DNA from: Verrucomicrobiota bacterium
GTDB taxonomy: Bacteria > Verrucomicrobiota > Verrucomicrobiia > Chthoniobacterales > UBA6821
Reading direction: 5' to 3'
Assembly (NCBI GenBank): GCA_008932965.1
Contig: WBXG01000045.1
Span: 1-13,912, forward strand
DNA length: 13,912 nt
A program made the position numbers and the translations under genes. Positions 9,344-11,043 of this stretch are shown here, piece by piece. The notes under the pieces are model-generated. The model made no database searches and was not told the DNA's origin. It was given only the letters and a program-made list of their open reading frames with translations. The first letter of the stretch is position 1, and each line of letters starts with the position of its first letter.

Positions 9344-10633
9344 AGCATTTAACCGATCAACTCCTCCGGCTGCAACGAGTGGAAGAGTTTCGTCACGTGA
9401 TTGGGCGGTTGTAAACTCATTTGTAAAATTTATCGCTTCTAAAGAGCATGGAAAATTTTCAGCGTTTTCTGCTTTTTTCTGATCAAAATTTGGATTTGGG
9501 GTGATTTTAATGGAAAGAAATGTTTTTGATTCCATCTTTGGATTGTCAGTACTATTAGAATCAGTGTCAAATGATACTACTTTAGCTCTTCTGGCTTCCA
9601 TCTCAGCGGCTGTCATCATTTTTTCCTTCATCTCTGGGGTACATAAAGGAGACCCACCAAGTTTATTTTGCTCATCCATCTGAGCGATTCTACTTAGTGC
9701 ATCATTTTTCAATAAAGTTATATCATTTTCAACTTCTGCGGTGCTTTTTTTTAAAAGAAATCCAACAGCAGGAGCAGTAATCTCGCATTTCAAAAGATAA
9801 TGCGTAGGTTGGGGAGAGACTACTTTTTGTAAGTTATATTTGAGCGTGGGTTTGCTAGAAGAGGGAAATCCTATCCCATTTTCTGCTGTTAAGTTTTTAT
9901 CTGCACGAAAAAATAATAAATTAATAGTATTTCCTAGTGTTTGATTCGCGGTTGAGATGATAGCAGTTGCAAGAAGAGCATTTCCTCCCACAAGTTCTGT
10001 AATTCTATTTATGGCATTACTAGCGATAACTTGATGATTAGTTGCTTGTGGTTGCAAAGATGATCCTTGTGGTGTACCAAAACCAGAATTGAAGCCAATG
10101 AGCGCTCCTTCTCCGTTCTCATCATGGATTGTAAATTCATTACAGCGAATAATGTCTTTACCTGCTTGTTCGATTCCTACTGGCTCTACCGCGTTGGATG
10201 ATTTGTTATGTTGTAGTTTTGTTGTTTCGCTTACAACTGTCTCAAACAAGGAACGAGTTAATTTATTAAGAAGACTTCCTCCGGCTTTGAAAGAACCATC
10301 ACTTGGAATAGAGACGGAATCGCCGGTCATAGTAGTTCCCTGAATGGACTCACTCGAATAATTCATCTGATCAGGTTTAAAGACCGAAGCATAACAGTTG
10401 TAGAGAGACCACTTGATGCTATTGAGAGCGGAACTAAACCTTGAATTAATGCAGTAAGTAAGATTTCTAATAGATGAGGCACATGCAGAGAGATCTGGAA
10501 ATTTAGAAAACCAAGAGGAAGGCTCTGAAGGTGATGTGGACTTGCTAGAAACCTGATTTGAATTTCTTTCAAGTGGCAGATCTGTCTCAACATTATTCGA
10601 TCTGGGTGAGCTATTATTAATTGTGTTACTCAT
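9341..10633 (-). CDS. Hypothetical 430-aa protein; candidate type III secretion substrate (effector)
   Basis: Long uninterrupted ORF whose ATG overlaps the upstream gene's TGA (ATGA at 10630-10633). There is no signal peptide or TM segment. 14 of the first 50 residues are Ser, with many Asn/Thr/Pro. I recognise no catalytic or structural domain. That it is a real CDS is high confidence; the functional call is inference from context. Confidence 0.5.
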   Translation of the reverse strand: MSNTINNSSPRSNNVETDLPLERNSNQVSSKSTSPSEPSSWFSKFPDLSACASSIRNLTYCINSRFSSALNSIKWSLYNCYASVFKPDQMNYSSESIQGTTMTGDSVSIPSDGSFKAGGSLLNKLTRSLFETVVSETTKLQHNKSSNAVEPVGIEQAGKDIIRCNEFTIHDENGEGALIGFNSGFGTPQGSSLQPQATNHQVIASNAINRITELVGGNALLATAIISTANQTLGNTINLLFFRADKNLTAENGIGFPSSSKPTLKYNLQKVVSPQPTHYLLKCEITAPAVGFLLKKSTAEVENDITLLKNDALSRIAQMDEQNKLGGSPLCTPEMKEKMMTAAEMEARRAKVVSFDTDSNSTDNPKMESKTFLSIKITPNPNFDQKKAENAENFPCSLEAINFTNEFTTAQSRDETLPLVAAGGVDRLNA

Positions 10634-11043
10634 AAAATAATACTGCTTCTTAGTGTTTCTGCTAAGCCAACGAAGTTTTTTAAATGCTCGTCGAGAAGGT
10701 CGACGGGAGCATTGTTGCTTTCTATGGTGGGTAGGGAAAAGCTACTTATTAAAAAAAGCTGGAACCCATCGGGGGGGATTTCAAGTCGTGCATCAGAGGT
10801 TCTGTGATAGGTAAACATGAGACGGAGTAAATCAAAGAGATGATTACTTCCTGTCATATCGATTCCTGGAAACAGCTCGCAGTAGATCCAAAGTTTACCG
10901 TCTTGAGGATCTTCTTGAAAATCGACTCCAAAAGATTCCTTCAGATTTAATCGTATAGTTCCCTCATCTCCTAAGTCGAGTGTTGAGCCAAGACCTATCT
11001 TGGATCCAAAGGCTTTCAATAAATCAGAGATCTCGGTTTTCAT
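10630..11043 (-). CDS. Small acidic protein with CesT/SycE-like (class I type III secretion chaperone) sequence architecture
   Basis: 137 aa with 21 Asp+Glu against 11 Lys+Arg. The layout matches class I chaperones: an N-terminal helix (ISDLLKAFGSKIGL), then 'L-D-x-x-G-x-x-x-L' (TLDLGDEGTIRLNL), then F-x-V-D-F (FGVDFQEDPQDGKLWIYCEL). A central helix (NHLFDLLRLMF) and a C-terminal helix (LLDEHLKNFVGLAETLR) follow. It sits immediately upstream of, and is translationally coupled to, the 430-aa ORF. A YbjN-like fold is an alternative. Confidence 0.6.
   Translation of the reverse strand: MKTEISDLLKAFGSKIGLGSTLDLGDEGTIRLNLKESFGVDFQEDPQDGKLWIYCELFPGIDMTGSNHLFDLLRLMFTYHRTSDARLEIPPDGFQLFLISSFSLPTIESNNAPVDLLDEHLKNFVGLAETLRSSIIL

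Follow-up and report, generated by a model that had tools for sequence, protein, structure and literature searches.

Class I chaperones of type III secretion systems are acidic proteins of ~120-160 amino acids (aa; isoelectric point, pI, 4-5) with an alpha-beta-beta-beta-alpha-beta-beta-alpha fold and an antiparallel sheet. In the class IA pairs (SicP-SptP, SycE-YopE, SchA-HopA1, and VecA-VepA), one chaperone gene lies beside one effector gene, and the effector carries an N-terminal signal and then a chaperone-binding domain within its first ~100 residues. CesT, the Tir chaperone of enteropathogenic and enterohaemorrhagic Escherichia coli, serves many effectors, binds CsrA via a C-terminal extension, and is encoded inside the apparatus island known as the locus of enterocyte effacement, while ExsC of Pseudomonas aeruginosa is regulatory and binds the small secreted protein ExsE and the anti-activator ExsD. 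In Chlamydiae, which carry a type III apparatus, chaperone loci (Slc1, Mcsc, Scc1) occur as chaperone/substrate pairs dispersed between housekeeping genes. Type III effectors have a well-established layout and undergo "terminal reassortment"; the latter was reportedly described in 2006 by Stavrinides, Ma and Guttman for Pseudomonas syringae and other proteobacterial pathogens. Here we describe a locus in a 13,912-nucleotide stretch (positions 1 to 13,912 of contig WBXG01000045.1, GenBank assembly GCA_008932965.1; hereafter the window) from a Verrucomicrobiota bacterium of the Chthoniobacterales, a group that is common in lakes and soils and is usually seen as free-living polysaccharide degraders. 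The window holds a gene for a 137-aa acidic protein that, on profile searches and a structural model, is assigned to class I of the CesT-type chaperone superfamily, followed directly by the gene for a 430-aa partner. The chaperone call itself is ordinary, and the NCBI pipeline already names one ortholog (P0011) "type III secretion system chaperone"; what makes the locus interesting is the lineage, its fixed place among housekeeping genes, and a mosaic partner that diversifies strongly. Our best overall explanation, to which we assign a probability of roughly 0.55, is a class I chaperone of the CesT/SycE type whose dedicated client is the downstream protein, which would be exported by a type III system.

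In the window, the chaperone and partner genes are arranged as one operon, in which the stop codon of the first overlaps the start codon of the second. Specifically, the chaperone open reading frame (ORF) comprises 137 codons from ATG to TGA (10630-11043, minus strand), and the 430-aa ORF (9341-10633, minus strand) is its immediate downstream neighbour. The TGA of the chaperone gene and the ATG of the partner gene overlap by 4 nt as ATGA (10630-10633, minus strand), and this overlap of stop and start implies translational coupling. The same 4-nt overlap was read in three further loci (L005, L011, and L013), and gaps of 10-43 nt were found in more distant orthologs. Every full-length ortholog locus that we read had a large ORF without Pfam match directly 3' of the chaperone gene, and glgB was divergent and upstream of the chaperone in all ortholog loci. 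An earlier annotation of the window by a model that saw only the DNA letters and their ORFs (hereafter the sequence-only reading) named secA and glgB as the flanking genes; this is correct for glgB, whereas on the other side the 430-aa ORF intervenes and secA lies 178 bp beyond it. Given the conserved divergent arrangement, the intergenic region shared with glgB (11044-11191) is presumed to be the promoter region of the chaperone/partner operon.

The same reading had placed the 137-aa product among class I type III chaperones, and both profile and structure comparisons agree with this placement. Pfam CesT (PF05932) matched the window protein over the full length of both (E = 0.0017; 18.9 bits, cut-off 22), all 11 aligned family members (best 4.4e-10) and, as a precomputed match, 22 of the 29 orthologs. 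A check against the YbjN-like families had been proposed as well, and the YbjN Pfam family did not match the window chaperone at E <= 1; NCBIfam returned no match for it either. An exhaustive HMMER search against 1.84 billion representatives recovered only 25 proteins at E <= 0.001, and the family is therefore a narrow, isolated branch. When the chaperone family was compared by hhalign with an alignment of ten of the weak full-length matches (A5), the two were related at 99.6% probability (E = 1.4e-23, 128 columns). The A5 profile in turn matched PDB entries for CesT (2e-14), VecA, ExsC, SrcA/STM2138, SycH, SicP, YscB, ShcA, and SycT, with the matches to CesT, VecA, ExsC, SrcA, SicP, and YscB spanning 2e-14 to 1e-6, and it matched Tll0839 only at 1.4e-3. 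The only direct PDB profile match of the chaperone family was ExsC (E 0.12). The gene for one A5 member (P0038) belongs to a genuine injectisome cluster that also holds sctJ, sctT/U/S/R/Q, and genes for an SseC-type translocator and a needle protein.

With a mass of 15.3 kDa and a pI of 4.54, the protein has the size and acidity of a class I chaperone, and its 21 acidic and 11 basic residues give exactly the net charge of about -10 that had been counted in the sequence-only reading. An AlphaFold model built from 11 aligned family members (mean predicted local distance difference test score, pLDDT, 76.5; predicted template modelling score, pTM, 0.74) showed a helix at residues 4-15, strands at 21-24, 29-33, 39-45, and 50-56, a helix at 66-78, strands at 85-88 and 97-103, and a helix at 113-134. 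This order (H-E-E-E-E-H-E-E-H, where H is a helix and E a strand) agrees with the class I fold and its antiparallel sheet. The segments singled out earlier from the letters all fall on modelled elements: the leading amphipathic helix "ending in GL" is helix 4-15 followed by I16-G17-L18, the D-x-x-G-x-x-x-L strand is D25-x-x-G28-x-x-x-L32 on strand 29-33, the beta-hairpin motif is F38-x-V40-x-F42 with L51-W-I53-Y54 on strands 39-45 and 50-56, the central LLxL helix is L72-L73-x-L75 within helix 66-78, and the C-terminal amphipathic helix is helix 113-134. Foldseek comparison of the model with the PDB placed class I type III chaperones at all of ranks 1-13 (template modelling score, TM, 0.62-0.72). 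Among them were ExsC, CesT, SicP, SchA, and VecA (overall TM 0.65-0.72), with ExsC as the best structural match (3kxy; E 5e-6, TM 0.69-0.72, 21-22% identity). YbjN-type structures, namely Tll0839 (2plg), YbjN (6vu7), and PA14_16140 (8q8o), scored lower (TM 0.53-0.60). A structural comparison with SycE, CesT, and chlamydial Slc1 had also been suggested; the CesT-type likeness was recovered, but no chlamydial chaperone was among the 50 best matches.

Across public data, the chaperone has 29 ortholog clusters (42-99% identity), and its ratio of nonsynonymous to synonymous substitution rates (dN/dS) against orthologs is 0-0.18, which together indicate that the ORF is real and not a chance one; the adjacent glgB and secA range from 0.04 to 0.13. 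The invariant hydrophobic positions (F12, I16, L18, L32, L34, F42, W52, Y54, L57, and L73) are compatible with a homodimer that carries effector-binding patches. The window chaperone resembles CesT in size, acidity, fold order, and predicted dimer-type alpha/beta architecture (TM 0.62-0.70 to 5z38 and 5wez; ~19% identity), but it lacks the CsrA-binding extension and is encoded between glgB and secA instead of in an apparatus island. It differs from ExsC in that its partner is large, mosaic, and encoded directly downstream. With regard to the C-terminus, four distant CesT-like relatives (P0038, P0039, P0043, and P0047) end in a hydrophobic residue plus Arg-Val (LRV, FRV, or VRV), a tail that the window chaperone does not have.

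The 430-aa partner had no significant sequence match in Pfam, NCBIfam, or the PDB, and neither a hydrophobic segment nor a Sec-type signal was found in it. When all partner proteins were compared with the same three databases, only sub-threshold coiled-coil noise was obtained. An AlphaFold prediction of the window partner, made without an alignment, had a pLDDT of 34.5. Serine makes up 28% of the partner's first 50 residues and S/T/N/Q/P together 60%; across 33 other proteins of the lineage, the S/T/N/Q/P share averaged 27% and did not exceed 44%. Residues 1-36 (10526-10633, minus strand) are also the most divergent part between alleles, and on composition and divergence this variable, polar, serine-rich N-terminus is a candidate secretion signal. 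Behind it lies a block of residues ~37-100 (codons 37-100 at 10334-10525, minus strand; SWFSKFPDLSACASSIRNLT ... IKWSLYNC), which is the only segment common to all glgB-linked partners. Its core motif reads FP-x-(M/L)-x-x-x-A-S-(S/C/T)-I-(R/K/G), followed by W-x-x-Y. By analogy with the solved complexes SicP-SptP, SycE-YopE, CesT-Tir, and VecA-VepA, we regard residues 37-100 as a candidate chaperone-binding domain. The ATGA-coupled position of the partner gene, together with a conserved block behind a variable polar N-terminus, is what would be expected of a cognate substrate, and we consider the chaperone/substrate pairing highly probable. The class IA pairs show the same layout, one chaperone gene beside one effector gene with signal and binding domain in the first ~100 residues (structural TM to the window model 0.53-0.71), but for those pairs an injectisome has been demonstrated. 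Unlike those pairs, the window chaperone gene lies upstream of, and translationally coupled to, its partner in the genome of a free-living-type freshwater Verrucomicrobiota.

Behind the conserved block, the partners are mosaics. Across loci they range from 355 to 919 aa and combine, in varying ways, three or more modules that are unrelated to one another. Module A (window residues 85-415) is homologous only to residues 86-387 of the L006 partner and to L021, module B is a long coiled-coil module in L005 and L007, and module C is a C-terminal module of ~250 aa in L005, L006, L008, and L001. The window partner has module A alone, which forms its variable body (codons 101-430 at 9344-10333, minus strand), and module A is replaced by unrelated modules in L005. 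In two other loci, a 102-aa ORF just after the partner gene (L011 7592-7900 and L012 3479-3787) is a relic of module C, and this relic has been entirely lost in the window strain. Identity over the longer sequence illustrates the contrast with the neighbouring genes: between the window and L005 it is 94% for GlgB, 97% for the chaperone, and 15% for the partner, and between L006 and L001 it is 88%, 91%, and 37%, respectively.

Selection differs between the two genes: it is purifying on the chaperone and diversifying on the partner body, which also exchanges modules. Between the window and L011, the chaperone proteins are 100% identical with three silent differences. Over the same comparison, partner residues 101-430 show 33 nonsynonymous and 1 synonymous codon differences, against 47 nonsynonymous and 119 synonymous differences in GlgB and SecA combined (Fisher p = 1.3e-14), and the excess in the partner body also departs from the neutral expectation (binomial p = 0.001). 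The conserved block differs from the body in this respect, with 2 nonsynonymous and 1 synonymous differences in residues 37-100 (dN/dS 0.26). Judged by analogy, the partner is built like a type III effector, with a polar tip that varies, then a conserved block, then a body that is shuffled and positively selected. As in terminal reassortment, close relatives share a conserved N-terminal region but carry C-terminal modules that are unrelated; this differs from the known cases in that the exchange takes place at one fixed chromosomal site between conserved housekeeping genes.

To define the distribution of the family, we ran a pattern scan over one genome per GTDB species (185,579 species). The chaperone was detected in four metagenome-assembled genomes (MAGs), all of freshwater Verrucomicrobiota with 43-46% GC; three are labelled Chthoniobacterales or Chthoniobacter and one Verrucomicrobiia, and the closest chaperone (Tobar2m-G38) is 97% identical to ours. 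A metagenome scan added three lake contigs, and all seven loci have the same glgB synteny. The family is thus confined to a narrow Chthoniobacterales clade. On this distribution, the organism is not a chlamydia, in keeping with the earlier guess that such loci might occur in a few Verrucomicrobiota. In this lineage we also found paralogous chaperones (P0029/P0030; 47-52% identical to the window chaperone), each followed by a protein of 331-545 aa that has no Pfam match and whose N-terminus is polar and rich in repeats. The pair is flanked by a cobW-like gene and smc (L025 10001-12211, L026 2326-4536, and L009 145-1656) on contigs of matching composition that come from the same two samples as the window-type strain. 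The L025 partner starts with an (S-T-A) repeat of ~9 units. A third chaperone (P0031; 32% identical) is located beside dxr and overlaps a small following ORF (L015 567-1225) on a 1.3-kb contig with 48% GC. With the cobW/smc pair, the lineage has at least two chaperone/partner pairs among housekeeping genes. The suggestion of a dispersed secretion-substrate locus gains from this second pair in related genomes and from the partner gene that the sequence-only reading overlooked. The chlamydial loci are alike in having pairs scattered among housekeeping genes and in belonging to the PVC (Planctomycetes-Verrucomicrobia-Chlamydiae) group, but they differ in that their chaperones are absent from the top structural matches described above.

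In the mechanism that we propose, the chaperone would form a dimer that binds partner residues ~37-100 in an extended conformation and so keeps the N-terminal part of the partner extended and secretion-competent. The dimer would then dock the partner, with its polar serine-rich N-terminus leading, at a type III ATPase/sorting platform encoded elsewhere in the genome. Once exported, the partner body may act on, and be selected by, an antagonist, presumably a eukaryotic host or prey cell. Under this proposal, the module shuffling and the excess of amino-acid changes would arise because the exported body meets that antagonist.

We infer the type III route from family membership and substrate architecture, and for this lineage we favour it with only modest confidence; several observations weigh against it. 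The CesT score of the window protein lies below the Pfam cut-off, and the CesT fold is also present in bacteria without type III secretion (e.g., YbjN, Tll0839). The sequence-only reading saw no apparatus gene in the window, our Pfam scan of its eight ORFs of at least 137 aa likewise detected none, and none was found within ~10 kb on either side of the orthologous or paralogous loci. When SctU from a type III cluster that holds a distant chaperone relative (L018) was used as a protein query, no Chthoniobacterales appeared among the 120 best matches. A contig from a Verrucomicrobiota MAG (L020) carries SctU, sctP/Q/R/S/T, a 1,998-aa protein, and a CesT-like gene, and was ruled out as the apparatus of our lineage by its 64% GC; the other three SctU contigs that we fetched (L018, L029, and L030) were ruled out by tetranucleotide correlations of 0.23-0.75 (0.72-0.98 within the lineage). 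One distant CesT-like gene (P0034) is an orphan among housekeeping genes, with neither an adjacent partner nor apparatus genes nearby. Finally, a full-text literature search retrieved no report of type III secretion for Chthoniobacterales, Spartobacteria, or lake Verrucomicrobia.

Elsewhere in the phylum, type III secretion has been reported for Verrucomicrobium spinosum (PMC3542564) and for two root isolates of other subdivisions (PMC7251102). Among the SctU matches listed, injectisome-type SctU is annotated in Planctomycetota (Thalassoglobus, Pirellulales) and in Verrucomicrobiota (Puniceicoccales and an unclassified MAG), with P0155, P0169, P0129, P0133, and P0087 as the entries noted. Within the PVC group, type III systems thus extend well beyond Chlamydiota. 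The presence of SctU in Verrucomicrobiota (L020, with its CesT-like gene, and Puniceicoccales) speaks for the type III reading, as do the injectisome cluster around P0038 and the NCBI name of P0011. As a separate observation, in L029 (8941-11068), from an organism with 40% GC, sctT and sctU follow a 93-aa ORF and stand alone among housekeeping genes (photolyase, ffh, gltX) without a full apparatus cluster, a dispersed arrangement reminiscent of chlamydiae.

The main rival, which we think less likely, is that a chaperone with the CesT fold serves the downstream gene product in a lineage without an injectisome, in which case a non-type-III route would apply. Such a chaperone might stabilise, keep inactive, or regulate a partner that is cytoplasmic or otherwise exported, or might feed a different export system. 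This explanation would account for the lack of apparatus genes in every lineage locus that we read, and it would suit a family this narrow (4 of 185,579 GTDB species; 25 representatives at E <= 0.001) that is embedded in conserved housekeeping synteny, with orphan CesT-like genes such as P0034 elsewhere. ExsC, which gave the closest structural match, is a chaperone that itself binds regulators, and both ExsC and CesT have regulatory roles through partner-switching. However, to our knowledge, and in agreement with the PDB names of the A5 matches, every characterised member of the CesT sequence family works with a type III system, which counts against this explanation. The partner is also laid out like a typical type III effector, and a purely cytoplasmic role would hardly explain why its body is positively selected. 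That a widespread, injectisome-less lineage of freshwater Chthoniobacterales uses CesT-type chaperones for a set of hypervariable, positively selected proteins, by non-type-III export or intracellular control, strikes us as doubtful; if true, this would be the first CesT-family chaperone/substrate system outside type III secretion.

We give much less credence to a YbjN-type stress or regulatory protein that shares only the fold and is functionally unrelated to the neighbouring gene. The three YbjN-type structures among the Foldseek matches (6vu7, 2plg, 8q8o) speak for it, and YbjN-type proteins are common in bacteria without type III secretion, but these structures rank below the type III chaperones (TM 0.53-0.60 vs. 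0.65-0.72 for ExsC, CesT, SicP, and VecA), the sole Pfam match is CesT, and the family is restricted to one clade. The profile chain likewise leads to CesT-type chaperones at ~1e-14 and to Tll0839 at 1.4e-3, and the ATGA overlap and invariable adjacency favour a functional pair. Given the partner's conserved N-terminus, swapped C-terminal modules, and, in some strains, relic fragments downstream (the 102-aa ORF in L011 and L012), the two genes could also be read as a cassette similar to polymorphic toxins, with an N-terminal trafficking domain, swappable toxin modules, and the small protein as adaptor or immunity factor. In none of the modules did we find a toxin, PAAR, Rhs, LXG, MIX, or immunity-type domain, and the modules are followed by no variable small gene, the next gene being a conserved glycosyltransferase on the other strand. 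The small gene itself precedes the partner gene, no other part of the locus is as conserved, and its product has the fold of a type III chaperone, so that a toxin cassette is highly improbable as well.

A conserved chaperone beside a module-swapping partner with 33:1 amino-acid to silent changes is the signature of a molecular arms race with another organism. If an injectisome is present, the lineage would be in direct interaction with eukaryotes, for instance with cells of algae, protists, or zooplankton, and the glgB-linked locus would be a marker for effector turnover in natural populations. If an injectisome is absent, the chaperone family would have a function outside type III secretion, which would be the more surprising outcome.

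Throughout the family, at chaperone identities of 55-100%, the operon is paired divergently with glgB (glycogen branching enzyme; window 11044-13498). Glycogen enzymes are said to have been reported as type III substrates in Chlamydia by Gehre et al. in 2016. The only sigma-70-like match in the glgB/chaperone intergenic region (11081-11054) was no better than chance, promoter and terminator scans around the operon performed no better than on shuffled sequence, and Rfam gave no match in the window. The same intergenic region holds a full copy of a dispersed repeat in L011, of which the window keeps a 21-bp remnant (11093-11113). This repeat is intergenic, ~190 bp long, and bounded by terminal inverted repeats of ~21 bp (TTAACCCGnATATTTCATAC ... 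GTATGAAATATCCGGGTTAA); it looks like a miniature inverted-repeat transposable element, and no Rfam match was obtained for it. Copies were located in the window at 2770-2960 and 9155-9349, both between convergent gene ends, with a partial copy at 10-79, in L011 at 2424-2606, 5608-5796, 7991-8172, 8166-8354, and 11391-11579, and in L005 at 5509-5689.

Between gyrA and secA, the window also carries a three-gene MacB-type ATP-binding cassette (ABC) export operon (2969-5997, minus strand), which consists of an HlyD-like adaptor (2969-4066), an ATPase (4084-4806), and an FtsX/MacB permease (4831-5997). L011, L012, and L005, strains that are otherwise ~95% identical, lack this operon and have gyrA immediately next to secA; the left junction of the operon in the window coincides with a copy of the ~190-bp repeat.

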